In this document: in pieces, positions 2,623 to 62,626 of the stretch
How the letters are laid out: each line of letters begins with the position of its first letter
How positions within the stretch are numbered: position 1 is the stretch's first letter
From: an uncultured Gammaproteobacteria bacterium
GTDB taxonomy: Bacteria > Patescibacteriota > Patescibacteriia > UBA10025 > JAHIVO01
DNA length: 64,000 nt
Direction: 5' to 3'
Assembly (NCBI GenBank): GCA_964628855.1
Contig: CAZVMV010000005.1
Location: 3,228 to 67,227, forward strand
Translations under genes and position numbers: made by a program
The notes under the pieces: generated by a model
Told to the model about the DNA's origin: nothing
Seen by the model: the letters and a program-made list of their open reading frames with translations, nothing else
Database searches by the model: none

Positions 2623-3048
2623 ATGGCTGGTTCATGGATTATTCTTGCCATTTTGTCGGCTTTGTTTGCCGCTTTGGTCGCCATTTTCGGAAAAGTAGGC
2701 ATAACAAATCTTGATACCACGCTTGCTACCACGGTCCGCTCCGTGGTAATGGCCGTTTTTTTGGTGCTGACATCGTTAATCCTTGGTAAGGCAAAGCTAT
2801 TGTCCGACATTCATCCGAGGGCAATGCTTTACATTGTTTTGGCAGGAGTCGCCGGGGCCCTGTCCTGGCTGTTTTATTTTTTCGCTTTAAAAAGTGGGCC
2901 GGCGCCAGCAGTCGCTGCACTCGACCGACTAAGCGTTGTTTTTGTCCTGATTCTGGCACTGATTTTTTTAGGCGAACACCTTACTTGGAAAACAGGTCTT
3001 GGAGCATTACTTATCACAGCTGGCGCAGTGTTTATGGTGATGAAATAG
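2623..3048 (+). CDS. EamA/DMT-like small membrane transporter (single EamA domain)
   Basis: It is 141 aa with about 5 TM helices, and the pattern WIILAILSALFAALVAIFGKVG is EamA-like. Confidence 0.6.
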   Translation: MAGSWIILAILSALFAALVAIFGKVGITNLDTTLATTVRSVVMAVFLVLTSLILGKAKLLSDIHPRAMLYIVLAGVAGALSWLFYFFALKSGPAPAVAALDRLSVVFVLILALIFLGEHLTWKTGLGALLITAGAVFMVMK

Positions 3049-3133
3049 TAGAAGTCCAAGAGTATTGACTTTTTGACTTTTTTTTGGTATGATGTAATCA
3101 GGTAGGTTTGTATTGTTTATTACATACAACCGC

Positions 3134-20846: not shown

Positions 20847-21644
20847 TTAGTTTTTTAGTTTAAAATTTGCCACCATATAGCCAACGCCAAAAGGGCCTTC
20901 GTACGAATAAATTTCCGGTTCATAAGTGATGGTGTTCAGCATGCCGAGCATCATTATGATCGAGCGCAGTCCGCATTCTCCGGCCTCCTCGACAAAATCA
21001 GCGTCAAATTTAAGGATTCCTGGTGTGTCTTTTTCTGAAATTTTCTTGATTAACGTCTCGTCGAATTTTTTCGCCCAGTGGGAAAATCCTGCAGGCGCAT
21101 CTTCTGTCAGCCGGTGGGACAGGTCGCCAGAAGCAATAATAGCGATCCTTTTCGTGTCATTGAGCATGTCCTGTTGCAGGGCAATCCCGAATTTATAGTG
21201 ATTTTCATAATCAAGCAATGAATACGAGACGGGGATAATGCGGATTTTCTTCCGGTCCAGGGCTTTGGTCAGGAAATATAATGGCACTCCGGCGCCATGA
21301 TCTAAGTCCCGAGAATTACTAAGCACCACGCGATGTTTGCTTTCAAGAATTTCCTTGTAATGGTGGATAAGCCGGATGTCGCCCTTCAAACTGAATTTTG
21401 TGTGTAAGTCACCGAATTCTTTAAACTGTACTTCGAATTCATTAGACATGTTTAGGGAAAAGGCGTCAGTATGCATCTGACCATGGGGGGAAATTACCAC
21501 AATGGCATCCGGTTTCGTGGCATACAATTCCTGAGCTAGCCGTTCCATGGACGCGGTTGTTTTTTTTACAAAACGGACATTGTCCTTACCGATGTCAGGG
21601 ATAAGTATTGGGGGGTGTGGGGTGATGGCAGAAAAGACAATCAT
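20847..21644 (-). CDS. Class-III extradiol dioxygenase (LigB)/Memo-superfamily protein
   Basis: Motifs AITPHPPILIPDIG, VVISPHG, DLDHGAGVPLYFL, GDLSHRL and AGECG are present. Confidence 0.65.
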   Translation of the reverse strand: MIVFSAITPHPPILIPDIGKDNVRFVKKTTASMERLAQELYATKPDAIVVISPHGQMHTDAFSLNMSNEFEVQFKEFGDLHTKFSLKGDIRLIHHYKEILESKHRVVLSNSRDLDHGAGVPLYFLTKALDRKKIRIIPVSYSLLDYENHYKFGIALQQDMLNDTKRIAIIASGDLSHRLTEDAPAGFSHWAKKFDETLIKKISEKDTPGILKFDADFVEEAGECGLRSIIMMLGMLNTITYEPEIYSYEGPFGVGYMVANFKLKN

Positions 21645-23026: not shown

Positions 23027-24052
23027 TTATTCAATTATTGACAGGGGATTTTGACAGTTGCGACATGTACCACTCTTATCATGCCTTCTGATCGAATAAC
23101 CAAATCGCTCAATACACATTGTACCACATTTTGGACATGAGGTATTTTCCGATTCCAGACCAGGAATATTGCCGGTATATACGTAATGTAGGCCGGCTTG
23201 CTTGCCGATATTATAAGCTAATTGGAGTGTAGATGCTGGAGTTGCGTTTAAATGCTTTAGTTTGTAGGAGATATCCGATGAGAATGCGGAAATATGCCAG
23301 GGTGTATCAGCCCCAAGTTCCGTATATATACACCCGGCCATTTCACGGAACATTTTTTCATCATCGCTCAGCGTGGGGATGGAAAGGGTAGTGATTTCCA
23401 CCCATACCTTGTTTTTTTTGAGCGTTTTGAGGTTTTTCAGAATCGGCTCAAGTTTCGCGCCGCATGTTTTCAGGTATTCTTTTTCATTAAAAAATTTCAG
23501 ATCAACGTTGATTGCATCGAGATAGGGGATGATCAGGTCTAGAGTTTCGTCCGTCATATACCCGTTTGATACCCAGACATTTTTGATTTTTTTCTCTTTG
23601 GCGAGTTTCATGCAATCTAGCGCATACTCCATCCAGATGGTCGGCTCTGTATATGTATAGGCAATGCTTTGGCAGTTGTTTGTTAGAGCGTCAGTAATAA
23701 CTTGTTCAGGAGCAAGTTTTTCGCCGGAAATTTTCAGGTCAGTGTACCCGGATTTTTTGGAGGCTTGGGAAATCTGCCAATTTTGGCAGTTGTCGCAGCG
23801 AAAATTACATCCAATTGTGGCTATGGAGAGTGATTTTGAACCGGGCAAAAAATGGAAGAAAGGTTTTTTCTCGATCGGGTCTATTGCCTCGGATATTGCT
23901 CTGCCGTAGACCAGCAAAACAAGCTCTCCGTTGATATTTTCGCGGACGCCACATATACCGCGTTTGGACGGCAAAATATTACAGTGGTGGTTGCATACAT
24001 GGCACTGTACAGTCTGATGTTGCTTTGATTCGTAGAGCAGGGCTTTTTTCAT
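23027..24052 (-). CDS. Radical SAM enzyme of the AmmeMemoRadiSam type
   Basis: The N-terminal segment is VQCHVCNHHCNILPSKRGICGVR. The CxxxCxxC cluster is CNFRCDNCQNW, resembling a PFL-activase. Confidence 0.8.
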   Translation of the reverse strand: MKKALLYESKQHQTVQCHVCNHHCNILPSKRGICGVRENINGELVLLVYGRAISEAIDPIEKKPFFHFLPGSKSLSIATIGCNFRCDNCQNWQISQASKKSGYTDLKISGEKLAPEQVITDALTNNCQSIAYTYTEPTIWMEYALDCMKLAKEKKIKNVWVSNGYMTDETLDLIIPYLDAINVDLKFFNEKEYLKTCGAKLEPILKNLKTLKKNKVWVEITTLSIPTLSDDEKMFREMAGCIYTELGADTPWHISAFSSDISYKLKHLNATPASTLQLAYNIGKQAGLHYVYTGNIPGLESENTSCPKCGTMCIERFGYSIRRHDKSGTCRNCQNPLSIIE

Positions 24053-32015: not shown

Positions 32016-33263
32016 ATGGAACGCATTATTTTGCATTTCGATATGAACTCATACTTCGCCTCCGTTGAACAACAGGCGAACCCGTTTTTGCGCGGGAAGC
32101 CGGTCGGGGTGTGTTCGACCATGTCGCGCCGCGGCTGCATCATTGCCTCGTCAAAAGAGGCGAAGGCTTTTGGCATCAAGACCGGCTGCCGGGTGGATGA
32201 AGCGCTTCAGTTGTATCCAGGCATTAATCTGGTTGAAGTGGACCCGTCCAAGTACCGTTCCACCACGCAGGCGATTTTTTCTTTATGTGCGGAGTATACG
32301 GAGGATATCGAGGCATATTCCATTGACGAAGCTTTCATGAACCTGACCGGAGTGGCGCAGACGTTCGACCAGGCGCAACGTATCGGCGCGGAAATCCAGC
32401 ATCGCATTAAAGATGAGGTGGGAGAATGGCTGGGATCGTCCATGGGCATCAGCCACACCCGCTGGTTGGCCAAGTTTGGCAGTGACACTGCGCCGAAAGG
32501 CGGCATTGTTATATTAACTAAGGATAATTTAAATGATTATTTGGTCGGTCGCGACCTTAAGGAAGCATGGGGCATTGCCGATGCGATATCCGGTCGGCTG
32601 AACATGCTGGGTATCACGACGCTGGACGAGCTTGCGCGGTATCCGGTGCAAAACCTCATGACCGCATTCGGCAAGACGGGGTATTATCTGTGGGCAAACG
32701 TGAACGGTATTGAGCTAACTGGCATAGAGGCTAAGCGACCGCCGAAGACGATCGGGCATTCGCACGTGCTGAAGAAGCGCGATCTCGACCGACGGTTCCA
32801 TATGGCCGTGCTGATGCGGCTGGCCGAGCGCACCGGCCGGCGCCTGCGGGAGCAGGGGTATGAGGGTCATGGTTTTTATTATTATGTGCAGTTTGACCGC
32901 CGGCCGTCGATCGGCGGCAGCCATCGCGTCCACCGTCCGATAGTCTCTTCGGCACAGATTTTCCGCATGGTATGGGAGCGGATTTGTCCGGTGGTAACCA
33001 AAGAACCACCGGCCATGTTCGCGCTGGGGTTGTTCGGTTTGCGGCCTAGGGTGGATCAGTTGGAATTTTTCAGCGATAAAAAGTTGTCACCGGAGTTGTC
33101 GAAAGCACTGGATGACATCAATGGCCGGTACGGCGAGGAGACGATCGTACAGGGGCCACTCCTAAAATTTGACCATAAGCACGCTCCTGACCGTGTCGGT
33201 TTCCGCAAGACGGTGGAGGCGGAGTTTCGGGGAGCGGGGAATTACAGTAGTTTCGAGGAATAA
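32016..33263 (+). CDS. dinB: DNA polymerase IV (Y-family)
   Basis: Motifs ILHFDMNSYFASVEQ, GKPVGV and SIDEAFMNLTG are present, with little-finger-like C-terminal part. Confidence 0.9.
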   Translation: MERIILHFDMNSYFASVEQQANPFLRGKPVGVCSTMSRRGCIIASSKEAKAFGIKTGCRVDEALQLYPGINLVEVDPSKYRSTTQAIFSLCAEYTEDIEAYSIDEAFMNLTGVAQTFDQAQRIGAEIQHRIKDEVGEWLGSSMGISHTRWLAKFGSDTAPKGGIVILTKDNLNDYLVGRDLKEAWGIADAISGRLNMLGITTLDELARYPVQNLMTAFGKTGYYLWANVNGIELTGIEAKRPPKTIGHSHVLKKRDLDRRFHMAVLMRLAERTGRRLREQGYEGHGFYYYVQFDRRPSIGGSHRVHRPIVSSAQIFRMVWERICPVVTKEPPAMFALGLFGLRPRVDQLEFFSDKKLSPELSKALDDINGRYGEETIVQGPLLKFDHKHAPDRVGFRKTVEAEFRGAGNYSSFEE

Positions 33264-33795
33264 AAAAAGCCTCCCATAGTTACATGTTCACTAGAGGGGA
33301 GGCGCCACTTCATGCCTGCTATTCCGGAGCGATTCGCACGTTCCATGCGTACTGGATGGGTCGCCCTGAGGGCATTGAGTTTGTCCAGCCATGGGCGGCT
33401 ATTTCTTTTCGGTTTTTACTCTCCGTACTGCTGATCAGTCAGTACTCTGCAGGACAAAATGAAGTGGAATAGTGCAGGATAGCATGTAGGCGAAATTTGT
33501 CAAGGTTGCCGCCAATCCATAGATGTTTGACGGCCTGATTTTATTTGCTACATTATATATGCGGAACGATGGCTTGGACTCGGAGCCAATACTGTCGGAT
33601 TCGCTGAGCTTTATTGAACATAATAAGAAATCACATTACTCTGACCGGTGATGTAAATAGAAGGAGAACTGGTTGCAATTAATCTGCAGATTGACTAGCG
33701 AAAGCGCGTGCTCGCGTACTGCAATTGCACAGCAGTATGCTGGGTGGATGTGAGGTAATTGCAGATTGCTTTGCTCTATCAAATCCGCAATACGA

Positions 33796-33830
33796 AACAG
33801 GGTAGTCCGAGATGCCCTGTTATTTTTATT
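33796..33830 (+). terminator. Rho-independent terminator (plus strand)
   Basis: A 7-bp stem AACAGGG/CCCTGTT with a 12-nt loop is followed by ATTTTTATT. Confidence 0.6.
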
Positions 33831-33835
33831 AATTA

Positions 33836-33872
33836 AATAATAAAAGAACCTCGGCCGTATGGCGCGAGGTCC
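33836..33872 (-). terminator. Rho-independent terminator (minus strand), facing the previous one
   Basis: On the minus strand the stem GGACCTCG/CGAGGTTC has 8 bp including one G-U pair, followed by a T-rich run TTCTTTTATTATTT. On the plus strand the same stem has an A-C mismatch. Confidence 0.55.
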
Positions 33873-33879
33873 GAAATTG

Positions 33880-34180
33880 TGTGCAGCGAGTGCCAGCTAA
33901 CCCCGGGAGAAGGGTTCACCCTGGGAAATGCCGGAGCACATACCCATTCGAGCGCCTACCAGGGAGGTAGGAAGGAGCATAGCTCATCCGAGCCGAGCCG
34001 TCTCTTAGTCGCTGTACGGACGAGTGCCGGTGAGTAGTCTGAGATATACCACCGTGAGCTGGGCCAGATTTGTGACAATTCACAGTAACTGGCAAATGAA
34101 ATGGCGAACTACAAAAGTCAACAGCCAAGAAGAATTGAATGAAACCACTCGGTCTCCTGTATTGTGTCACTCGCTGCATA
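33880..34180 (+). ncRNA. Structured ~300-nt RNA, candidate RNase P RNA (identity and strand uncertain)
   Basis: An 11-bp perfect terminal helix pairs 33882-33892 with 34168-34178. Collinear blocks resemble remembered RNase P conserved regions: GGGAAATGCCGGAGC, GAGTGCCGGTGAGTAG, CCACCGTGAGCTGGGCCAGAT and TTGAATGAAACCACTCGGTCT. The hairpin at 33902-33925 has a G-U pair on the plus strand only. Confidence 0.4.
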
Positions 34181-34198
34181 AAAAAAGTTCTGATGTAT

Positions 34199-34227
34199 AA
34201 GATAGCGTAATATTAATATTATGTCAA
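34199..34227 (-). promoter_or_regulatory. Sigma70-like promoter on the minus strand, reading into the structured RNA region
   Basis: On the minus strand: TTGACA (34227-34222), a 17-nt spacer, then TATCTT (34204-34199). Confidence 0.4.
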
Positions 34228-34432
34228 GACCGCTTGCCATATTGGATTATGGTGCGTGGTGAAAGGATCATGATTTAAATTACGTATTATTGTTGAAAAG
34301 GGAGAATTGCTCCCTGTTTCACCCCCTAAAAATGTTTGCTCTTTGCAATGTATTATTAACTGACTTAGCCAAAATCTCCGCCCATATAAAAACGGAGGTT
34401 TTGGTGTACTAGTTCCTTTCGGGCATGTGAAA

Positions 34433-34460
34433 TTGCCGTGAAAGGCTAACATGCTATACT
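34433..34460 (+). promoter_or_regulatory. Candidate promoter of the ECF sigma operon
   Basis: TTGCCG (34433-34438), a 16-nt spacer, then TATACT (34455-34460). Confidence 0.4.
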
Positions 34461-34488
34461 TCGATCATAAACAGGTATCCTCTTGCCC

Positions 34489-35085
34489 ATGCTTACTCCC
34501 GAAGAATACCAGTCAAAAAGCGATGAGGAATTAGTGTCTTTGACACTTGCTGACCAGGAAGTATTTTTGTATTTGATGCAGAGATACGAAAGTAAGCTTT
34601 TGAGGTATGTGAATCGGACATTCAGTACCAGGAAGGAGGATGCTGAGGATATCGTTCAGGAAAGTTTTATCAATGCTTATAGGTATTTGAACAGCTTTGA
34701 CCAGCACTTGAAATTCTCGTCTTGGCTTTATCGCATCGCCCATAATGCGGCAGTCAGTTATTTCCGAAAAGCAAAGGCCCGGCCTCAATTGGTGGATTCT
34801 GAGGACAGCGAACTCATGTTGGAGCGGATCGCGTCTGATTATGATTTGCAGGATGAGGTGCATTCAAAACTGACAGGTGAGAAAGTTCGAGCAGTGCTAG
34901 AGCATCTTGATCCTAAATACCGGGAAGTGCTGATCCTGAGATATCTAGAAAATAAGGAATACCAGGAAATTTCGGATATATTGAGAAAACCGATCGGGAC
35001 GATCGGGACTTTGCTCAACCGGGCAAAAAAACAGTTTGTCACGACTATCCAGCTTCATTCGTCACATTTGGCAGAATCATTATGA
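34489..35085 (+). CDS. ECF-type RNA polymerase sigma-70 family factor
   Basis: Region 2 reads DIVQESFINAYRYLNSF...WLYRIAHN. Region 4 reads REVLILRYLENKEYQEISDILRKPIGTIGTLLNRAKK. The start is ATG at 34489 or TTG at 34483. Confidence 0.85.
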   Translation: MLTPEEYQSKSDEELVSLTLADQEVFLYLMQRYESKLLRYVNRTFSTRKEDAEDIVQESFINAYRYLNSFDQHLKFSSWLYRIAHNAAVSYFRKAKARPQLVDSEDSELMLERIASDYDLQDEVHSKLTGEKVRAVLEHLDPKYREVLILRYLENKEYQEISDILRKPIGTIGTLLNRAKKQFVTTIQLHSSHLAESL

Positions 35086-35870
35086 ATTCAATCAGCAGCC
35101 AGACATTAGAAAAACTAAAAGCACAACACGTGACCCCAATCCCACGTTGGGAATTTTTGCTGAAGGATTCTGTGGTTTGGGTTGGTTTTGTAATTGCAGT
35201 TTTGATTGGCAGCGTCGCTTATTGTGTGGCCTTCTTCATGCTTAGCACGCAAGATTGGAAACTCCATGATTATGTAGGGGGGAGTGCATTAGCTGACGCC
35301 TTGTCTGGTTTGCCGTATTTATGGTTTATCGTCCTGATTTTATTCATGGCGCTGGCAATGTATAATTTCCGTCATACTCAATCCGGTTACCGATATCGTG
35401 TCTGGGGGGTGGTTATGGCCAGCATTGGTGCGAGTATTCTGATCGGCAGCGCACTGCATTATACCGGCTTTGGAAATTTTCTGGACCGGGTCATGGCAGA
35501 GAATATGCCGGTCTACCGCCAATTAACACCTGACCGCCAATCAGTCTGGACCCAACCGGAAAAGGGTTTGTTATCCGGGAAAATTCTACAACCAGACCAA
35601 GCCATGCCAAATACCCTGGTTATAAAAGATTTTAAAGGAAAAAAGTGGCTGATCAGCATAAATTCGGCTGTAATTGACCCGCATTTAAATTTTTCAGTCG
35701 GACAATATATTAAAATCGTCGGCCAAAAAACCGATTCAAACCAATTCCAGGCCAGCCATATCATGCCATGGAATATGCAGCGCTGGATCGATGATTATAA
35801 TGAAATACAGGATGAAAGCATTTTGTTTTTCACTAATCCTAGGCAATCGTTAATTATTCTACACACCTGA
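35082..35870 (+). CDS. Membrane protein, putative cognate anti-sigma factor
   Basis: It forms an ATGA overlap with the sigma gene. It has a short cytoplasmic N-terminus, 4 TM helices and an extracytoplasmic C-terminal domain. Confidence 0.5.
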   Translation: MNSISSQTLEKLKAQHVTPIPRWEFLLKDSVVWVGFVIAVLIGSVAYCVAFFMLSTQDWKLHDYVGGSALADALSGLPYLWFIVLILFMALAMYNFRHTQSGYRYRVWGVVMASIGASILIGSALHYTGFGNFLDRVMAENMPVYRQLTPDRQSVWTQPEKGLLSGKILQPDQAMPNTLVIKDFKGKKWLISINSAVIDPHLNFSVGQYIKIVGQKTDSNQFQASHIMPWNMQRWIDDYNEIQDESILFFTNPRQSLIILHT

Positions 35871-36254
35871 TGAAATAATTTTTAGGTTATCCTGCGTATA
35901 AGGGTTGAAAGGTCGAAAAAATCATTAGCATCTTGATAAGCGGTACCGATAATTTGCGAATATTTCACCTGCTGTTTGTTAGCCACCGGTATCCAAATTG
36001 CCGGCATATGACAGCGGCTACTATGTTAGAGAAAATTGAATCCAGCAGGCTAGGAATATGAGAATCGTTTATGGGGACTGATGAGCCGGTCCCATACAAC
36101 ACTTGAGAATTGCGGAATGCGAAAGGTTTCACCCCCACCACATTTCCACGAAAACTTAGGTGTCAAAAAAACTTACCAACTTGTTCAAAAGATGCTATTG
36201 GTGATGACAGGCAAAGTAATACGCAGGGCAGCCCCCAATAAGGGCTGTTCTTTG

Positions 36255-36914
36255 TTAAATTCTTTTCGGGTCGATAATTTCGGCAAAATCGTTTCTCACG
36301 GCATTGACACGGGGAGAGACGGGATACATATTCATCTGGTTTGCCGGTAAGGGTTTAAGCACGGACAATGCCGCTTCCAGTTCGGCCGACGTGTCAGTCC
36401 ACAAGGATTCATATTCAGGCCGGAGAATTACCGGCATGCGGTCATGGAGCCGACTAACCAGATCGTTTGCTGGTACAGTAATTATGGAAAACGTTGGGAT
36501 GGCATTACCAGTAGGAGGGGAATACGTAGTCCAGATACCGGCAAAGGAAAAAGGCTGTTCATTTTTCAGGAAAATGCGGTAAGGTATTTTTTGCCCGTTT
36601 TTTCTGTCCCATTCAAAAAAACTATCAGCCAGGACCAGGCAACGATTTCTTTTGGCGGCATTTTTAAATGACGGTTTTAGGCTGATCGTTTCTGCTCGCG
36701 CATTTATCAGTGGATGGGAGGGTTTATTTTTCATCCAAACCGGTATCAGACCCCACTGGCCCAAGGTGATGGCTTGAGGTTCGGTATTCAAAATCACCGG
36801 AAGCCGTTGGGTCGGAGCCGCATTGAAATGGCGGGTTAAGGGCATTTTTATTTGCGCATGCCAACGTTCTTCGATAATATCGTCTTTTGAAAAAAATGAA
36901 TATCGCCCGCACAT
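36255..36914 (-). CDS. SOS-response-associated peptidase (SRAP/YedK-type abasic-site processing protein)
   Basis: It has the N-terminal MCGRY with catalytic Cys2, plus INARAET and FFEW motifs. Confidence 0.85.
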   Translation of the reverse strand: MCGRYSFFSKDDIIEERWHAQIKMPLTRHFNAAPTQRLPVILNTEPQAITLGQWGLIPVWMKNKPSHPLINARAETISLKPSFKNAAKRNRCLVLADSFFEWDRKNGQKIPYRIFLKNEQPFSFAGIWTTYSPPTGNAIPTFSIITVPANDLVSRLHDRMPVILRPEYESLWTDTSAELEAALSVLKPLPANQMNMYPVSPRVNAVRNDFAEIIDPKRI

Positions 36915-51735: not shown

Positions 51736-52674
51736 CTAATCCTGTTTCAAAGGATGGAATTTTCGATGTGTATCCTCAGCATATCTATCCGAGGCGTTGA
51801 CATAACGTGTAGTGGTGTCCAGCGATTCGTGGCCAAGCAGGATTTGGATGGCGGCTGGGTTAGCGCCAGATTCTGCTAAATACGTAGCGAAGCCGTGGCG
51901 GAGGCTGTGGGCTGACGTGGGAACATTAATTCGTAAACGTTCCCTGTACTGTTTTATTTTCCGTTGGAACTGGCTTGGTGAAATTCTTGCATTGATCGAT
52001 GCTGCTTTGGACCCGCGGTAGGGGATGAAGAGCGCCGGATGGTTGTCGCGGCGTGTGCGGAGGTATTCCTCTATATGAACTTTAGCACGCTGGGTCAGAT
52101 AGACAAACCGTTGCTTGCGGCCTTTGCCGGTGATGAAGATTTTGCCGGTCGGATCAATCTGGTTTTTATTCAGGTTAATCAGCTCCGATATACGCATGCC
52201 CGTGGCAAAGAGCGTCTCCAGCATGGCCCGATTGCGGAGAGCGACGTATTTGTTATTTTTTTCGAATTCAGAAGGGGATTCGATTAGACGGACGATATCA
52301 TTCAATTCAGCCACCTGAGGGTGCTTTTTTATCGTTTTAGTGAGCCGTATCACCTGCGGATTCACCGGACAGTCGTAATCGTTGTCTATGAGGTATTTGA
52401 GGTATGACCTGAGGGCTGACAGCATCCGGTTGATGGAATACGGGTTCAGGCGCTTCAGACCCTTCTGCGCCTCGGCTGTTTCCCTGTCCCGGGACACCAA
52501 GTAGGCCTTGTAGAGCTCCAGATCACGCCTCTGGAGCTTCTGGAAGGGGACGGAGGACTCGGTATCCAGGTAGTGCTCGAAAACCTTCAGGTCGCGTTCG
52601 TAGTTGTAGACCGTCTTCTCCGAATAATTATTCGTCTGAAGATTCAGTAGGAAGTCGTCTAAATGAGGTAACAT
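51736..52674 (-). CDS. Tyrosine recombinase, XerC/XerD-like
   Basis: An N-terminal SAM-like core-binding domain is present. The catalytic region reads ATGMRISEL...HSLRHGFATYL...LLGHESLDTTTRYV. Confidence 0.85.
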   Translation of the reverse strand: MLPHLDDFLLNLQTNNYSEKTVYNYERDLKVFEHYLDTESSVPFQKLQRRDLELYKAYLVSRDRETAEAQKGLKRLNPYSINRMLSALRSYLKYLIDNDYDCPVNPQVIRLTKTIKKHPQVAELNDIVRLIESPSEFEKNNKYVALRNRAMLETLFATGMRISELINLNKNQIDPTGKIFITGKGRKQRFVYLTQRAKVHIEEYLRTRRDNHPALFIPYRGSKAASINARISPSQFQRKIKQYRERLRINVPTSAHSLRHGFATYLAESGANPAAIQILLGHESLDTTTRYVNASDRYAEDTHRKFHPLKQD

Positions 52675-55723: not shown

Positions 55724-55756
55724 ATGCCCGCGAAGTTATCAAGCGGGCATTTTTTT
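55724..55756 (+). terminator. Rho-independent terminator
   Basis: Stem ATGCCCGC/GCGGGCAT is followed by T6. It overlaps the stop of the convergent nuclease gene. Confidence 0.7.
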
Positions 55757-56429
55757 ATCCACGTTTTACATATTTTTTCATTTCCCTGTGCCAGCCGCAG
55801 AAAGGACAGCCTTTTGAGGCGGGCGGCATTTTGCCTTCCAATATTTTGATGGCTTTCAAGAATTCAGTTAAGGCGTTTTGTGGATTGGTTTTTAACGTCT
55901 TAACGGTAATTTCCATGGGAAAACCCTGGTGCAGCTCTCTCCCCATGGCTGGATAAAAATATATCAGATGCCCGATACCGGATGATTTGCGACGGTTTTT
56001 TTCCAATAAAAGCGCATATGTGTCTAATTGTACCTGATAGGCCGGTATCATTTCGTGCTGATTTGGGTCGGAGCTGGAAGTCTTGTGGTCAACCGGCGTG
56101 TAGGTGCCTTGCGGGGTGATTATGCATTCATCCAATTTGCCCATCAAGCCGTAATTCTCGTTGTAATGGTAGAAATACGCTTCAGTAAAAGGATTTTGGA
56201 GTTTACCGTTCACTTGGCCTGAAATCATGGGCGGCAGTTCCCCCGTCGTCCGGTACAGGTCAAAATATTGCTTTATAACCCCGTCAAACCTGTTGGCCAG
56301 TCGTGAGACGATGCCTTCGGGCTGGCGCAGGCCTTTATTGTACTGCAGCCAAAAACAGCGGGGACATCGTTTGGAATTCTCAATGGCCGTCGGCGACATC
56401 CATTTTTTCTTTTTTACGATTTTTTCCAT
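55755..56429 (-). CDS. PD-(D/E)XK nuclease-family protein with four Cys (Cas4/RecB-like fold)
   Basis: The N-terminal motif is CPRC and the core is GKLDECI...PVDHKTS...YQVQLDTYALLL. The C-terminal motif is CPFCGW. Confidence 0.65.
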   Translation of the reverse strand: MEKIVKKKKWMSPTAIENSKRCPRCFWLQYNKGLRQPEGIVSRLANRFDGVIKQYFDLYRTTGELPPMISGQVNGKLQNPFTEAYFYHYNENYGLMGKLDECIITPQGTYTPVDHKTSSSDPNQHEMIPAYQVQLDTYALLLEKNRRKSSGIGHLIYFYPAMGRELHQGFPMEITVKTLKTNPQNALTEFLKAIKILEGKMPPASKGCPFCGWHREMKKYVKRG

Positions 56430-56432
56430 AGG

Positions 56433-57350
56433 TTAACGATAGTATACCATTTCAAAGTAACTCGTGACAGGTACTGACATGTTGTTGGCAAGAAGTCCAG
56501 AATTGGTATTGGCCAGAATCACAGATTTAACGGAACCGAAATTTTTCATCAATTCAAAAAGAAGCGAGATTGATGCGGGCGAATCGACATAGTCATTGAA
56601 CGCCGTACCAAACGACATGATGCCAGAACTGTCCAGGCCAGTAAGCAGCTTGGCGGTAATTTTGTCGTGTGCGGCCGCTTCCTCGGCGGAAAGATAATGC
56701 GAGAAATCAACCGATGCAATTACTGCAGAATTTTGCGGTAAAATTTCCCCAAGTCCCAAAGCAAGACTGGAGATTTGAGCGGTCGACGTTTCGGCCTTGA
56801 GGATTAGAGGAATTATTCTGGCATTTGGCATGAATTGTGCGATGACAGGCATAATGCCCGTGACTGAATGGTCGCCCTGTATGACAGTCGGGTCGGATTG
56901 GACGCCGTATTTATCCAGCAGTGATCTGATTATTGAACTGTTTTGTTTGATAAGCCCCTTCGGCGTTGACCATGCTATATCTGCCGTAAGGATATTTACA
57001 GCTCCGCGTTCGTAGTGGTTTGGTCCAATGATCACTATCGTTGAGACATTTTGCCTTGCCAGGTGCTGGATAACGTCAAAGGCATATTCCAGATGCTGGA
57101 TGTCATGAGGGACTATGCTGCCGTAAATTTTTTCTGTCGGCCATGACGCGGTCGCGGCCTGACTGGCCAGTCTCTGGCCGTTTAGCCAATTTGATTGGTC
57201 ATAATAGATGACTGGGAGCTTTTCTGGCGGTTGGATCTGCTTATTTCCGGATTTTTCCTGGCCAGCCAGGCGTGCCGCTACCGCGGCACCGGCGCCGATC
57301 AGGGCGCCGGCTACCGCAAACGTAATGATTACTTTGCCGAGAGTGTTCAT
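56433..57350 (-). CDS. Memo-family (AmmeMemoRadiSam protein B-like) protein with N-terminal TM anchor
   Basis: The TM helix is VIITFAVAGALIGAGAAVAA. Motifs GSIVPHD, VIIGPNHYERG and SVDFSHYLS are present. It forms an ATGA overlap with the upstream giant gene. Confidence 0.6.
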   Translation of the reverse strand: MNTLGKVIITFAVAGALIGAGAAVAARLAGQEKSGNKQIQPPEKLPVIYYDQSNWLNGQRLASQAATASWPTEKIYGSIVPHDIQHLEYAFDVIQHLARQNVSTIVIIGPNHYERGAVNILTADIAWSTPKGLIKQNSSIIRSLLDKYGVQSDPTVIQGDHSVTGIMPVIAQFMPNARIIPLILKAETSTAQISSLALGLGEILPQNSAVIASVDFSHYLSAEEAAAHDKITAKLLTGLDSSGIMSFGTAFNDYVDSPASISLLFELMKNFGSVKSVILANTNSGLLANNMSVPVTSYFEMVYYR

Positions 57351-60300
57351 TTAATAGTAACTGACTCTGATTGGCCAAAAGCCTTGCTTGTAGGCACTTT
57401 GAAACCCCTGATCAGTGTCGGCTCTGCAGTGAAGGAGCCTTTGCTGATAACTGTGGCATAATAATGCATTTCTCTGGCCGGTTTGCCGCTCCAGAATTTT
57501 ATGGCCTGACCGTTGATTTCATATGGATATGCCAAGTTTGGGTCGTAATTGATAAGCCGGTTGTAAGCGTAGGACAGGACTTTCAATCCAGCTGGCAGGT
57601 AATCAACAATCTGGTACTCATTGTCGATGGCTTTTGAGTTTATGGATGGTTCAAGAACGATTTTAACCAAATCGTTTTCTTTCAATGTGCTAGTCGCTTT
57701 GCCGTCAACGTAGAACGTACGTTTGATAGAGAGGCTGCTGTCTGTTTTTTCCGCCTTTATGTCCAGCGGCACGTCGTTTGTTTGGATCACGCCAACATTA
57801 CCCGTGATATTGGAGAATGTCAGGCCTGATAACTGACTTGGCGTCACTGACAATGATTCTGTCTCATCACCTGATAGTGAAACATTTTTTGCCTGCCCAT
57901 CCAATGTGTAAGTGAATTTAACTGCTTCCCCAGAGAGTAATGGCAAAACCTTCTGTAGGTAGCCGATCTGTTCAAGGCTATTCAGTTGGTCCACAGCCGG
58001 ATGGTCCACCGCATAGGCGAACATTTTCGTCGCTTCTGGAGCAGAGACGTTGGCGGCAATTATTGCGGCTTGGTAGGTGTTTTCGGTGTAATCGTCATTT
58101 GTCTCACCTAGTTTGAGCCGGAAATAAGGTTCCTGGACTTCTCCGTATTTTTTTACGACATCGGCCAGCAATGATCGGGCATACTCCCCTGCTCCGAGGT
58201 TGGCCAGACCATTAGCCAGGTAAAGTTTCAGGTTATCCGGGACATCATTATTATCCATCAGGCTGAGGATATCGTTAAGAACTGGCTCGCCCATATTGGC
58301 TTCACCGTACAATGCATAAACAATCTCATCTAGATTGCTGTTCTTATTTTTCAGTGTTGTTTCAAAATACCCCCTGGCATCATTTTTATCGAAGATATCT
58401 GGAGCGACTGCCATCGTTTTGGCGGTCAGGAGTAATTCTGCAGACGAATATGGCAGGATACTGAGCCCGCCCTCAGGTGTCTGGTAGTCAGTAAAACTTA
58501 TTTCCTCTCCCATTCCTTTTTGGCCAAAGTAAGTGTTGAGTAGTTTTTGGGATATGACCCGAGCCAGCTTCTGGTCAATCCGGTCCCCGTACGCATATTT
58601 CAACTGCGACAAGTCATTCAGGTATTGCCCACGTTCTTTATTTGTGAACAAAAGTGAAGTACGGCTGGCGCCATCTGCCGTCAGTTTCAGATCATTTGTC
58701 ACGGCCAGGTATTTTATGTCTTGCTTGGTCAAATGCGTGGGCGTGATAGTGATTGTTTTCGTCAGCGTATCTGTATGTCCTGCCGCCGAAGCCTTGACCG
58801 TGATTTTGTGCTGTCCGGCTTCAAATTTCGGCAGCGCTACGTCAGCGGCAACGAAAGCTTTGGCGGTATACTTTTCTGTTTTATTTATGTCGGGGTATGT
58901 TACTTCAAACGAAACCGTGTCTGTGGCGGACAAAGCCTGGCCAAAACCCCGTAACTTAATAATGGGCTGGTCAGTGGTTAAATATTCGCTAGCAACCGCC
59001 ACGTCAGCGAAGAATGGGAGCGTTGCCACTACCGCTGTCCTTGTGCCGCCAGCTGAGAGATCCTCAGTAATTGCCTGGACAGTAGTTTGCCAGCTGGTGA
59101 CATTGTCCGGGAGTTTGAATGATATACTGGCTTTGCCGTCGCGGCCGGTTTCTGTACTGCCGAAATACGCCACGTCCTGGAAATTTTGCCTTCCACCACC
59201 TTTTTCGTTATGCACATAGAGTCCAGAAGCGATAAACGTATGGGCTGGATCAGTGGTTAGGTTATATACGTCAGTATATCGGTGATGCCTGACAATGGAA
59301 GTGATTAGCACGGATTGCCCGTTGGCATCAGTAAGGAAATCGCCGACGTGGGCATTACCGGCAATTTCCCATTTACCGTTAATGAGGATGACATGTACCG
59401 GAGTCACATTTAAACGTTCGTTTATAGACAAATATTCAGCCACTGTGTGCTTGATCGTATTAGTGACTTTTGCCGTGGTCATGTTCAGGTTATTTTCATT
59501 TTCAAAAGTCCTGATCTGATCTCCGATTTCCACACTGTCGATTCGTTTTTCTGTTCCATCCGCTAGACTAATCATTGTTTCTCCAGTGAAACAACCGCCA
59601 CGTTCGGCCATCGGTGAAACATTTTCCTTATGGGAACTATATGACATGGTTACTGATGACGGCAATTGCTGGTACAGGGCACCCAGAGTGTTCAAGCTGG
59701 TTTCCCATTGGATAGCTGCCAGAGCCTGGTCTATCAGGGATACGTTGACTGCGGCTTTGACCGGTTTGCTGTCAGGGTCAGTTACCGATAAATCCAGCTT
59801 AACTTTATCGCCAGGCGCATAGGCAGCTTTATCTTGGGTTACGTCGACAGTAAGTTTTTTTGGATCTGTTTTCATGACAATATTAGCGGTAGCTTGGCGA
59901 TATGATCGGCCATTGAAATATATTGCGTAAACGTAAACATTCGGTGCGTATGCTTCCTTGAATGGGAAAGATATTTCTGGATTAGCCCCGGCATTAATGT
60001 CGCTGATGCCGTTATGTTCCTTGAAAAACAGGAAGTCGTTGTTGCCTGTAGACGTGACGGTGACGTCATCTTTTTTTAGGGTTGCAACCACGTTTTCGCC
60101 CGGCGCATACACGTTTTGCACAGTTTCATTCTCGTGGTTCGTAGACAGGTAGTAGTAATCATAGGAGCTTCCCGGTATGCCATAGCTTGAGCCATAAGAG
60201 GATGATTCTACCGCATGCCCATTTGAGTCAGTCGTTGAGGCAATGACTTTGTACCATTTTTTTGGCTGGGTTGTGTAATTGTACGAAAAACTTCCGTCCG

Positions 60301-62626
60301 AACCGGAGTTGACGTCCGTTTCGGCAATTGATTTCTCACGGTACTCGTAACGGTAAGAAGTGATTGTTTTTTTGTTTATAAAATCGTAGGTCGTACCATT
60401 TTCGATTTTGTCGTAATACTGCTCATAAACATTCAGGTGGACTTTTGCGTTTGCTACTGGTTTGCCCAGGTAGTCCCATTTTATGTCATTTCCCGGCGCA
60501 TTCAGGTTAGTTAAGTCGACGGCATTTACTTTTCCGTTGACTTTACCTGGCTCGTTCTGCTCAAGGGTAATCGCTGAACGTGAATTAAACTGATAAATAT
60601 TGGCCGTACTTTCGATATATGTAAGTTCGGCCTGGACAGGATGGACAGTGATATAGGACGAAGAATATTGCTGTGTTTGGTACTGTTCATAGGGCCGATC
60701 AAATGATAGTCGTGCCGCACCGGTGGAATCGGTGGTTACGGTCCCCTCCCCGAATTGCCCCGTATACTGCAATTGGAGGTTGCTAACCGGCGTTCCGTCA
60801 AAGAATTTGGCCGTAACATCAAAAACAGCTTTTTCGCCTGAGAAGATGGCTTTTTTCGGCATGGAAATATCGATGCCGTAGGAAGGTTTGGTATAGGTCT
60901 GGATATCGACATACCCGACAGAAATTTGCTGGTCACCTGCCATCACCCGGACCTGGTAAGATCCTGGGTTGAGGTTTTGGTATTTAATAGTCCCCTCAAA
61001 AGTACCGTAGTCGCTGATAGCGGCTTTTGAAGTTCCGACCACATTTTCTTGCGATGTTTCGTTGCTATAGGTGAATGAAATTAAGTTTACTGTGACCTCT
61101 GGCAGTTTTTGGCCAGCCCTGGATTTTGCGATTCCCCAAAATTTTATGCTATCAGTGGGCAGGTATAAGGAACGGTTGGTGTATAGGTATGACCAGTAGT
61201 CCGGATTTGTAGCAGCTGGGCCGCTTGGATAGGCCATGTATTCATAATTGTTCATTTGGGCTGGCACAAGCAGCTTGTCATTACCGCTGGATATTATGAA
61301 ATGGTAGGTGCGGTCTGACTGATCGGAGTATTGACTTGTCGTAAGAGCATGGAGTTCTTCCGGAGTTTCCCAGGCGCCCACTCCCTGATCATTGGTGGAA
61401 GCGACTTTACTGTCATCTTTTGAATATGTGATTGTCGCATTTTTTTCCGGAAGTTTCGTGGTCAGTCGGTGAACCCATATCAGTGAGTTGGTTTTACTTA
61501 TTTGCAAAGTACTGACCAAATCACTGACTTGAACGAACGCCTGGGTTTTACCGTTGGCATAGGATATTTCTACCAGGTATTGACCGGCTCGGAGATTGTC
61601 CGGGAATTCGATATACCGGAAATAATCGCCAGACTTCAGGTCAGCGCTAAAGCTCACCTCCTTTGTTAATGAATTTGTTGGGTACGTATAGGAATTACCA
61701 AAATCATAAGCCCATAAAGGGACGCTTACTTCGCGAGTTTTGACTGCATCATTGAATGTATTGAAGTTAGGGAATGACCATACGTCAACTGTTACTTTTG
61801 ACAAATTAGTATTGTATTCGTACATGGTCATGACCGGGTTCTCCTCCGGTGAGAATTCGAAAAATTTACTGTCAAATGACATGTATCCCTGGTTGCTAGC
61901 CGCGTTTACCGTGGCAAATTGGAATGAATAATCGTCCGCCAGAACATCGGTACTGTCCTTAACCCCTAATCCTTTTTTTATAGTAACAGTATAAACCGTG
62001 TTTTCTGTCAGGCTTTTCGGGACGTATACCAGTGTTTTTCTGTGTCGCTCAAAGGTGCCATCAGTACGCGGTGAAATGGAAAAAAATTGTTCCGGGCTAT
62101 CGTAATTTTCAGTTGAAAACGTGACCTCAATGCCAGTATTGGTAGGGATTGATGTGGTTTTGTCGCGAGGCAAGGTGCCAGTAATTTTGAAACTGTCCTT
62201 GATCTGGTAGGCCCATTGGTATTCGCGTTTATTGCTAGTCGCAGTACTAGCGGCTGTTAACGAAAAAGCATAGACCTCGTTTGCCTCTAGCGGCTGGGCT
62301 GGGCTGATAGTAAAAGTATTGTTATCTGATGATTCGATTTTGTACGCAATTTCGGGAGAAACGCTCAGAGCCGCTTCTACGGTTTTTGTTTCAACCGGCC
62401 TGGTGCTGGACAATATAAATGAGGTGTCTGGTAAAGTTCCTAACGAATCCTGTTTGGTCGCTTTCAGTGTAAATTGGTTATCTTCGGTACCTAGGATCAC
62501 TTCAGTTTTTTTAGCGTTTGTGTTTGATGTTTGGCCTTGGTCATGGGAAATAAAATACCAGGTTACACCCCCGGCCGCCAGCAGTGCGACGATTAGGCCG
62601 CTTATAAGCCAGACATTTTTTTTCAT
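57347..62626 (-). CDS. Giant membrane-anchored alpha-2-macroglobulin-like protein (thioester-less) with internal Hint domain
   Basis: It is 1759 aa with an N-terminal TM helix and beta-rich MG-like repeats. The A2M signature is RQNFQDVAYFGSTETGRDGKASISFKLPDNVTSWQTTVQAI. The thioester-site equivalent reads LPYSSAEL. Confidence 0.8.
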   Translation of the reverse strand: MKKNVWLISGLIVALLAAGGVTWYFISHDQGQTSNTNAKKTEVILGTEDNQFTLKATKQDSLGTLPDTSFILSSTRPVETKTVEAALSVSPEIAYKIESSDNNTFTISPAQPLEANEVYAFSLTAASTATSNKREYQWAYQIKDSFKITGTLPRDKTTSIPTNTGIEVTFSTENYDSPEQFFSISPRTDGTFERHRKTLVYVPKSLTENTVYTVTIKKGLGVKDSTDVLADDYSFQFATVNAASNQGYMSFDSKFFEFSPEENPVMTMYEYNTNLSKVTVDVWSFPNFNTFNDAVKTREVSVPLWAYDFGNSYTYPTNSLTKEVSFSADLKSGDYFRYIEFPDNLRAGQYLVEISYANGKTQAFVQVSDLVSTLQISKTNSLIWVHRLTTKLPEKNATITYSKDDSKVASTNDQGVGAWETPEELHALTTSQYSDQSDRTYHFIISSGNDKLLVPAQMNNYEYMAYPSGPAATNPDYWSYLYTNRSLYLPTDSIKFWGIAKSRAGQKLPEVTVNLISFTYSNETSQENVVGTSKAAISDYGTFEGTIKYQNLNPGSYQVRVMAGDQQISVGYVDIQTYTKPSYGIDISMPKKAIFSGEKAVFDVTAKFFDGTPVSNLQLQYTGQFGEGTVTTDSTGAARLSFDRPYEQYQTQQYSSSYITVHPVQAELTYIESTANIYQFNSRSAITLEQNEPGKVNGKVNAVDLTNLNAPGNDIKWDYLGKPVANAKVHLNVYEQYYDKIENGTTYDFINKKTITSYRYEYREKSIAETDVNSGSDGSFSYNYTTQPKKWYKVIASTTDSNGHAVESSSYGSSYGIPGSSYDYYYLSTNHENETVQNVYAPGENVVATLKKDDVTVTSTGNNDFLFFKEHNGISDINAGANPEISFPFKEAYAPNVYVYAIYFNGRSYRQATANIVMKTDPKKLTVDVTQDKAAYAPGDKVKLDLSVTDPDSKPVKAAVNVSLIDQALAAIQWETSLNTLGALYQQLPSSVTMSYSSHKENVSPMAERGGCFTGETMISLADGTEKRIDSVEIGDQIRTFENENNLNMTTAKVTNTIKHTVAEYLSINERLNVTPVHVILINGKWEIAGNAHVGDFLTDANGQSVLITSIVRHHRYTDVYNLTTDPAHTFIASGLYVHNEKGGGRQNFQDVAYFGSTETGRDGKASISFKLPDNVTSWQTTVQAITEDLSAGGTRTAVVATLPFFADVAVASEYLTTDQPIIKLRGFGQALSATDTVSFEVTYPDINKTEKYTAKAFVAADVALPKFEAGQHKITVKASAAGHTDTLTKTITITPTHLTKQDIKYLAVTNDLKLTADGASRTSLLFTNKERGQYLNDLSQLKYAYGDRIDQKLARVISQKLLNTYFGQKGMGEEISFTDYQTPEGGLSILPYSSAELLLTAKTMAVAPDIFDKNDARGYFETTLKNKNSNLDEIVYALYGEANMGEPVLNDILSLMDNNDVPDNLKLYLANGLANLGAGEYARSLLADVVKKYGEVQEPYFRLKLGETNDDYTENTYQAAIIAANVSAPEATKMFAYAVDHPAVDQLNSLEQIGYLQKVLPLLSGEAVKFTYTLDGQAKNVSLSGDETESLSVTPSQLSGLTFSNITGNVGVIQTNDVPLDIKAEKTDSSLSIKRTFYVDGKATSTLKENDLVKIVLEPSINSKAIDNEYQIVDYLPAGLKVLSYAYNRLINYDPNLAYPYEINGQAIKFWSGKPAREMHYYATVISKGSFTAEPTLIRGFKVPTSKAFGQSESVTIK
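59207..59593 (-). mobile_element. Hint (mini-intein / bacterial intein-like) domain inserted in the A2M-like ORF
   Basis: It spans residues 1012-1140. Block A is CFTGETMISLADG, block B is NVTPVHV and blocks F/G are DVYNLTTDPAHTFIASGLYVHN. No endonuclease module is present, and the +1 residue is Glu. Confidence 0.7.

Follow-up and report, generated by a model that had tools for sequence, protein, structure and literature searches.

What is encoded between a dinB gene and a sigma factor gene at positions 33836 to 34227 of the 64,000-nt stretch of contig CAZVMV010000005.1 analyzed here (positions 3,228 to 67,227 of the forward strand; hereinafter, the window)? An earlier note on this DNA had seen a structured RNA of ~300 nt whose plus strand resembled RNase P RNA and whose best expression signals lay on the opposite strand, and had hesitated between a divergent rnpB and a different, possibly novel, structured RNA. 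Our analysis favors the latter. The locus would be a self-contained structured non-coding RNA (ncRNA) gene, extending on the minus strand from a promoter at 34227-34199 to an intrinsic terminator at 33872-33836, and we estimate at roughly 0.7 the probability that it is a real gene of an undescribed family other than RNase P. This reading relies on a promoter, a terminator and helices that are conserved in a second species, together with compensatory changes. All comparative statements rest on two species, i.e., that of the window and the lineage of a homologous locus, L007.

Conservation, transcription signals and strand

The homologue was found by walking dinB homologues, i.e., by synteny; DNA was obtained for seven of the eight, and the RNA was present in the L007 lineage only. 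It occupies positions 1312-1720 of L007 (Joint Genome Institute [JGI] contig Ga0172379_10006356, which equals NCBI JBAYGJ010000021.1, "Patescibacteria group bacterium SO_2016_GW1_122"), flanked by the dinB stop codon on one side and by a minus-strand gene for a pyridoxal-phosphate enzyme (PALP) on the other. This metagenome-assembled genome (MAG), JBAYGJ01, found in three assemblies, is the only other species in which the element was found: L014, L022 and L026 are the same sequence as L007, no base of the RNA region differs in L025, and L008 has 2 base differences.

Third codon positions of dinB, the sigma factor gene, the neighboring gene for a 262-amino-acid (aa) protein and the SRAP peptidase gene are 44 to 57% identical between the window and L007, and neutral sites are therefore near saturation. 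Against this background, the 75-nt 3′ part of the element (33878-33952) is 93% identical, both strands of its closing helix P1 are 100% identical, and ~85% of the columns of a 157-nt core are invariant, with the 5′ variable part at 44% identity with several indels. Identity is ~30% directly past the −35 hexamer and past the terminator U-run, and it is exactly these two features that limit the conserved block. The unit of conservation is, as far as this alignment indicates, the interval from promoter to terminator. The pattern, as seen between two species, is that of a non-coding sequence under purifying selection in which substitutions preserve the structure. The element was judged not to be protein-coding from indels in the 5′ half whose lengths are not multiples of three, from two 1-nt indels in the core, which exclude a coding explanation, and from the lack of a Pfam match for the 87-aa minus-strand open reading frame (ORF).

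The promoter that the earlier note had read on the minus strand, TTGACA-17-TATCTT, is present and kept in L007. It matches at 10 of 12 positions with a 17-nt spacer and is probably a near-consensus sigma-70-type promoter. Many start codons of this genome are closely preceded by TATAAT-like boxes, so that −10 boxes of the sigma-70 type appear to be in use. Positions 34208-34221 of the window, inside the spacer, form a perfect AT palindrome (TAATATTAAT / ATTAATATTA), which could be an operator and is not conserved in L007.

At the other end, the hairpin followed by a T-rich run, also spotted earlier, exists as well, with an 11-bp stem and a predicted stability of −18.5 kcal/mol in the window and −16.2 kcal/mol in L007; a simple terminator scan did not list it. 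The differences between the two stems are a U-A to C-G replacement (compensatory), a G-U to A-U change, and a C-G to U-G change (wobble-compatible). They are valid only on the minus strand, since a plus-strand reading gives A.C mismatches. Read on the plus strand, the stem is followed by no U-run in the window, whereas the minus-strand U-run occurs in both species. The two signals delimit a predicted minus-strand transcript of ~355 nt. The element has, therefore, what is generally expected of an independent small RNA (sRNA) or ncRNA gene, i.e., its own promoter and terminator on one strand at a position kept in the homologue.

Neither thermodynamics nor G-U counts alone distinguished the strands. 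Folding against dinucleotide shuffles yielded z-scores of −3.4 (minus) and −3.8 (plus) in the window and −3.1 (minus) and −2.9 (plus) in the homologue, and the RNAalifold models contained 10 G-U cells per strand. For the core, the RNAalifold consensus energy was better on the minus strand (−45.05) than on the plus strand (−39.3). The earlier claim that G-U pairs favor the plus strand holds for the A/U-rich extension of P1, but not overall, since the comparatively supported helices (Pa, H4, H5, H6 and the base of Hv2) carry such pairs mostly on the minus strand. On the basis of the conserved promoter hexamers, the terminator changes and U-run, the placement of G-U pairs, a UNCG-type loop and the core energy, we conclude that the RNA is most likely made from the minus strand, from ~34192 to 33836 (~355 nt).

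The predicted fold

P1, of 11 bp, would close the RNA. The 3′ half would consist of four conserved hairpins, H3 to H6, and the diverged, length-variable 5′ half of two variable hairpins (Hv1 and Hv2) and four islands that pair back to the 3′ half (Table 1). The several hairpins enclosed by the terminal helix in the earlier description are indeed found between its two arms.

Table 1. Features of the predicted RNA gene and of its neighbors (window coordinates; comparisons are with L007)
Feature	Position	Strand	Remarks
−35 hexamer TTGACA	34222..34227	-	identical in L007, where the spacer has diverged; overlaps the PALP stop codon there
−10 hexamer TATCTT (L007: TATGCT)	34199..34204	-	17-nt spacing in both species
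Predicted transcript, ~355 nt	33836..34192	-	start near 34192 (±3) from the −10 box; 3′ end in the U-run
P1, 5′ strand (UGCAGCGAGUG)	34168..34178	-	11-bp perfect helix with 33882-33892; invariant in L007
Island CAGGAGA	34153..34159	-	candidate pseudoknot strand with the H6 loop, 33904-33910
Pa, 5′ strand CCGAGU (L007: UCGAGC)	34147..34152	-	pairs with 33988-33993
Hv1, variable hairpin	34063..34093	-	hairpin with internal loop in both species, from largely different sequences
P2, 5′ strand CCAGCU	34057..34062	-	conserved island in the variable half; pairs with AGCUGG; invariant, no covariation
Hv2, hairpin	34028..34054	-	~14 nt longer in L007
Pa, 3′ strand GCUCGG (L007: GCUCGA)	33988..33993	-	pairs with 34147-34152
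H3, hairpin GAGC-UAU-GCUC	33975..33985	-	stem kept; loop CAC in L007
H4, hairpin CCUACC-UCCCU-GGUAGG	33955..33971	-	A-U to G-C (compensatory), C-G to U-G
H5, hairpin with UCCG (UNCG-type) tetraloop	33922..33946	-	holds the CR-I-like string on the plus strand
H6, hairpin AACCCU-UCUCCC-GGGGUU	33899..33916	-	a single loop base differs in L007
P2, 3′ strand AGCUGG	33893..33898	-	directly adjoins the P1 3′ strand
P1, 3′ strand (CACUCGCUGCA)	33882..33892	-	pairs with 34168-34178
Intrinsic terminator	33836..33872	-	stem-loop 33846-33872 (11-bp stem), then U-run to 33836
dinB, Y-family DNA polymerase	32016-33263	+	flanks the RNA locus
ECF-type sigma factor gene	34483-35085	+	flanks the RNA locus
Gene for a 262-aa protein	35082-35870	+	flanks the RNA locus
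SRAP peptidase gene	36255-36914	-	flanks the RNA locus

The perfect terminal helix pointed out previously exists, but taken alone it does not exceed chance: perfect 11-bp inverted repeats 150 to 400 nt apart number seven in the window (eight overlapping seed hits), versus 4.4 ± 3.2 seed hits in mononucleotide shuffles. P1 stands out from chance because neither arm has changed in the homologue, in which neutral sites are saturated.

Substitutions in the other stems are compensatory or wobble-compatible, and none disrupts a supported helix. Pa shows a C-G to U-A (compensatory) and a U-G to C-G change, and the base of the Hv2 stem a U-A to A-U (compensatory) and a C-G to U-G change; in H5, a U.U mismatch of the window is a C-G pair in L007, and a G-U pair is G-C. 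Each of the four short conserved islands of the 5′ half, GGAGA, CCGAGU, UCGC and CCAGCU, has a complementary conserved partner in the 3′ half; this implies that two long-range helices are pseudoknotted with one another. Stretches of 5 bp or more through which the 5′ half could pair with the core in both species number 18, versus 6.5 ± 3.6 when alignment columns were shuffled (18 or more in 5 of 500 shuffles). P2 is predicted to cross Pa in a pseudoknot, and the loop of H6 would provide a third contact, giving a compact fold. In this CAGGAGA contact, both species keep GGAGA/UCUCC, next to which the window has an A.C pair and L007 a G.U pair. Pairing of the UCGC island with its GCGA partner is weak and competes with a local alternative partner in L007. 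The fold as drawn, pseudoknots included, is a prediction from the two aligned sequences.

Comparison with RNase P RNA and other known RNAs

In the whole window, Rfam 15 at the gathering threshold matched a tRNA-Gln only. At an E value of ≤10, equivalent here to ~13 to 15 bits, 901 nt around the region gave, on either strand, only two noise matches of ~15 bits to eukaryotic families, and 521 nt of the homologue gave, again on either strand, noise only; four related loci had no match in Rfam. RNase P families, for which the earlier note had suggested looking on both strands, were listed neither at the gathering score nor at E ≤ 10, in the window or in the homologue. Genomes of Escherichia coli hold rnpB, ssrA, ssrS, ffs and rRNA genes; blastn in distant mode against them found no match, including none to E. 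coli rnpB.

The likeness itself is of little consequence. In RNase P RNAs, conserved region I (CR-I; GAGGAAAGUCC, the 5′ strand of P4) and CR-V (ACAGAA...CCGGCUUA, the 3′ strand of P4) form the long-range P4 helix, and the A-run of the J3/4-P4 adenosines is universally conserved. The collinear blocks that had been compared with such regions are present as letters, but carry no statistical weight, with no covariance model match and with the key block not conserved. Thus, the CR-I-like plus-strand string GGGAAAUGCC reads GGGACGUGCC in L007 and sits in the local hairpin H5; in a longer frame, the plus-strand block GGGAAAUGCCGGAGC, compared with GAGGAAAGUCCGGGC, reads GGGACGUGCCGGAGC in L007, where the A-run is lost. 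A local H5 is backed by its U.U to C-G change, and the 3′ partner proposed for the string forms ~4 to 5 pairs by hand. The region contains no ACAGAA element; the earlier note had itself found neither this element nor a clean P2/P4 pairing obvious. A G+C-rich RNA with many hairpins can come to resemble RNase P RNA, and comparison with the homologue removes the likeness.

A highly divergent RNase P RNA on the plus strand is accordingly very improbable. CPR (Candidate Phyla Radiation) bacteria are known for diverged RNase P RNAs that standard thresholds miss: among 35 circular CPR genomes, 10 required a lower RF00010 threshold, and helices were missing or extended (Lui et al. 2021, PMC8172020). 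These diverged RNAs were still hits of the RF00010 model (PMC8172020), whereas nothing is listed here down to ~13 to 15 bits. On the plus strand, the succession of P1, an adjacent helix, a hairpin and two long-range helices that cross loosely recalls P1-P2-P3 with the P2/P4 crossing, and Rfam finds no RNase P RNA elsewhere in the 64-kb window. Domain sizes do not fit, however, with four hairpins in the place of P3 and only ~65 nt for the whole specificity domain. The lack of any family match in either species, the A-run that is not conserved and whose string lies in H5, the missing ACAGAA and the absence of blastn similarity to E. coli rnpB all argue in the same direction, as do the conserved promoter and terminator on the opposite strand and the absence of the element from the same islet in five related lineages. 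RNase P RNA was rejected on these grounds. Of the two options left by the earlier note, divergent rnpB fails, for lack of an Rfam match and because the A-run is lost, and a structured RNA that matches nothing in Rfam stands. What the element shares with RNase P RNA of type A (RF00010) or type B (RF00011) is a size of ~300 to 400 nt, paired ends, hairpins, crossing long-range helices and a stand-alone gene. It differs in having no covariance model match, no conserved CR-I/CR-V nucleotides and other domain proportions, and in that the putative P4 strand is a local hairpin that varies in the homologue, on the strand opposite to that of the alignment. RNase P RNA is, moreover, a housekeeping gene of essentially every bacterial genome, whereas close relatives do not have this element at the corresponding locus; the comparison covers the islet, and a relocated or diverged copy, or a canonical rnpB, may lie elsewhere in these genomes.

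Further known RNAs were discarded on similar evidence. Transfer-messenger RNA (tmRNA; RF00023), 6S RNA (RF00013) and signal recognition particle (SRP) RNA also measure 100 to 400 nt and have paired ends, and tmRNA has, in addition, several pseudoknots and a similar length. For tmRNA, ARAGORN found none in the window, where it reported the tRNA-Gln only, and neither a tmRNA nor a tRNA in the region when introns of 0 to 600 nt were allowed; Rfam likewise gave no RF00023 match. Unlike tmRNA, the element has no T-arm before the 3′ strand of P1 and no stop-ended tag reading frame. 6S RNA was rejected because RF00013 does not match and the predicted folds are multi-branched and span ~355 nt, in contrast to a rod of ~150 to 200 nt with a central bubble; SRP RNA was rejected because there is neither an Rfam match nor an SRP domain IV motif. 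The distribution of the element also looks accessory, different from that of these three housekeeping RNAs. tRNA genes interrupted by group I introns are reported for Patescibacteria (PMC13011429). Such a gene was discarded in view of the negative ARAGORN search with introns and of the lack of an Intron_gpI (RF00028) match at E ≤ 10; a 7-bp acceptor stem leading into a T-arm is also incompatible with the continuous P1 of 10 to 11 bp. An origin from phages or plasmids was discarded for want of a blastn match in distant mode. Finally, plus-strand GGA motifs, counted by eye, are roughly twofold enriched in the core, and the idea of a CsrB-like sponge with GGA loops on that strand was dropped in view of the minus-strand expression signals.

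No matching structured RNA from CPR/Patescibacteria was found in Rfam 15, and we found no description of one in the literature. The closest parallels are the raiA motif RNA, OLE, ROOL and GOLLD, the latter three being larger. Like them, the element is a stand-alone unit with promoter and terminator, has a terminal helix that closes a fold of several hairpins, candidate pseudoknots and strongly conserved stem sequences, and shows no obvious target or coding capacity. All four are in Rfam 15, yet no sequence or covariance model similarity to them was detected here. They also comprise hundreds of sequences with significant covariation, mainly from Firmicutes, Actinobacteria and related groups, whereas the element is from two CPR species only. 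We rate it as one of the orphan structured bacterial ncRNAs, a kind already known, of which this family itself is undescribed. That it represents an undescribed class, namely, a compact RNA with two pseudoknots that is restricted to a Patescibacteria lineage and kept as a promoter-to-terminator cassette amid gain and loss of genes in the surrounding islet, is a tentative proposal that we regard as possible rather than probable. If true, the doubly pseudoknotted fold and the sequence-conserved stems would suggest a component of a ribonucleoprotein, or even a ribozyme, with a new function in reduced, episymbiotic bacteria. CPR/Patescibacteria have tiny genomes and unusual ribosomes and introns, and to our knowledge almost none of their non-coding RNAs have been studied experimentally. 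A conserved RNA of ~350 bases with a strong promoter, under purifying selection amid reshuffled neighbors, would be a candidate for lineage-specific RNA biology. Its practical value is limited for now, with two species that have the RNA and no function assigned.

Alternative readings, distribution and the islet

Three other readings compete with an independent gene for a structured RNA. The element might not be a gene of its own, the RNA being a structured 3′ untranslated region (UTR) or processing/stability element of PALP left behind after a deletion, or else an element that acts as DNA. This is unlikely, even if the arrangement in L007 lends itself to it: there, the same-strand PALP gene ends inside the −35 hexamer and no terminator separates PALP from the RNA, so that PALP transcripts must run through the RNA, which would form their 3′ end, and in the window, which has no PALP gene, the deletion ends exactly at the promoter. 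The window nevertheless retains the intact element and the promoter hexamers at the same spacing. That RNA and promoter were kept after PALP was lost argues for a role independent of it. The 93% identity of the 3′ part contrasts with saturated neutral sites, and relatives that bear PALP in either orientation (L001, L003 and L005) do not have the element. As for a DNA-level element, the compensatory changes point to RNA pairing and not to a protein-binding site. Chance or hitch-hiking conservation of a non-functional sequence, e.g., a young insertion shared by two lineages, with the structure as an artifact of G+C richness, would accord with the number of species (two), with the chance-level frequency of the 11-bp helix alone, with the RNAalifold z-score of −1.25 for the core and with the ~80% identity of the adjacent region upstream of the sigma factor gene between both species. 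It hardly accounts, however, for so strongly patterned a divergence (identities of 100% for the two P1 strands, 93% for the 75-nt 3′ part and 44% for the variable part of the 5′ half), for stem changes that are compensatory or wobble-compatible and never disruptive in supported helices, or for a conserved block whose ends coincide with promoter and terminator; we deem it very unlikely.

The remaining alternative concerns the mode of action. The RNA might be a base-pairing regulatory sRNA whose C/U-rich loops (UCCCU, UCUCCC and UCCG) and linker CUCCUUCC bind purine-rich ribosome-binding sites, as RsaE/RoxS do. UCC motifs indeed number 7 in the minus-strand RNA of the window and 12 in that of L007, as compared with 3 and 2 GGA motifs, respectively, and three conserved hairpin loops, rich in C and U, are predicted to be single-stranded. 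Shine-Dalgarno sequences are scarce, though, with GGAG, GAGG or AGGA upstream of only 1 of 52 long ORFs, and many genes have a −10-like box directly before the start, which suggests leaderless mRNAs. The C/U-rich loop of H6, besides, has a conserved internal partner, GGAGA, and sequence conservation extends to the stems in addition to the loops, an unusual trait for a seed-type sRNA. We therefore consider a regulatory sRNA of this kind improbable, and the specific idea of anti-Shine-Dalgarno pairing was rejected, because a genome with such motifs at 1 of 52 long ORFs is essentially devoid of them. The most likely mode of action would be through the three-dimensional fold of the RNA, with a protein partner or as a scaffold, rather than as a simple antisense regulator; a fold-based action like that of the orphan structured RNAs raiA or OLE is put forward by analogy and with low confidence.

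Several points weigh against the reading of an independent minus-strand gene for a structured RNA. Two species-level sequences are available, and the covariation is a handful of changes without statistical power. P1, P2, H3 and H6 are invariant and hence uninformative on pairing, and the isolated core fold has a non-significant z-score against column shuffles (−1.25). The thermodynamic z-scores do not tell the strands apart, and both the A/U-rich extension of P1 and one pair of the Hv2 stem in L007 favor the plus strand. A protein partner is not directly indicated by any of the data. No further homologue emerged when JGI metagenomes and GTDB genomes, one for each species, were scanned for patterns, so that the RNA is either very narrowly distributed or fast-evolving, and its importance is unproven.

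In those scans, JGI metagenome contigs were queried with CTAAGAGACGG-N33-60-CTCGAATGGG, which matched 11 stretches, the sole genuine one being the already known contig. The others failed nhmmer, and the representatives L009, L012, L013 and L018 also failed a covariance model search. One-genome-per-species contigs queried with RYRYNYCCCAGGGTGAACCCYNNNNNNRRR gave five stretches, with the known contig as the only true match, and three exact or degenerate motif scans of viral contigs gave none. The covariance model of the 157-nt core recovered nothing new in L001 to L028, and a six-frame translation of the core, aimed at spurious ORFs annotated over homologues, had no match among 5.8 billion proteins. 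As a separate observation, eight contigs of one sample series (L009 to L011 and L015 to L019; JGI Ga03254xx plus Ga0307511) share a near-identical stretch that matches both scan motifs; nhmmer finds no relation between it and the RNA, nor does the covariance model match it in L009 and L018, and these are chance matches.

The genomic context agrees with a restricted distribution. Homologues of dinB are from MAGs of Patescibacteria/CPR, and more distant ones bear the label Kerfeldbacteria, which places the window in the Patescibacteria; its host is, by this criterion, a Patescibacteria (CPR) bacterium related to Kerfeldbacteria-labelled sequences. Comparison with L001, L003, L005, L007, L027 and L028 identified the interval between dinB and the SRAP gene (window 33264-36254) as a hypervariable islet. 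It is empty in L027, where both genes abut, and elsewhere among the relatives it contains PALP, a membrane protein, a Na/Ca exchanger or a sigma/anti-sigma pair in differing orientations and combinations. The element is absent from this islet in the L001, L003, L005, L027 and L028 lineages, as judged by blastn, nhmmer and the covariance model of the core, and also by Smith-Waterman alignment in the case of L001, L003 and L005. Because of its position in a hypervariable islet and this absence from the islet in five related lineages, the RNA looks accessory and lineage-restricted rather than housekeeping. Compared with L007, the window has lost ~1.5 kb, comprising PALP and its upstream region, with a deletion edge exactly at the −35 box of the RNA, and has gained ~570 nt between dinB and the RNA. 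A PALP pseudogene remnant at 33264-34482 was rejected, as tblastx found no match in this interval.

The islet holds further candidates for transcribed elements. On the plus strand of the window, 33527-33832 may be a second small transcript converging on the terminator of the RNA, with a promoter-like site TTGACG-16-TACATT at 33527-33554, an intrinsic terminator at 33796-33821 and a fold z-score of −2.46. Its last 80 nt (33753-33832, hairpin plus terminator) are 86% identical to L001 6951-7028, 3′ of the PALP gene there, versus only 80% protein identity between the dinB products of L001 and the window. In L007, ~540 nt (2923-3464) separate the start of the minus-strand PALP gene from the sigma factor gene and carry an annotated 97-aa ORF without family; this interval, which has no match in Rfam, could be a long 5′ leader or riboswitch-like region of PALP, and part of it (3261-3455) is 80% identical to window 34283-34479.

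Two observations concern the window at large. A TATAAT-like box lies 6 to 10 nt before the start of genes such as those at 20847-21644, 23027-24052, 51736-52674 and 55755-56429, which suggests that leaderless mRNAs may be widespread in this CPR lineage, and the minus strand at 57347-62626 contains a very large ORF of 1759 aa.

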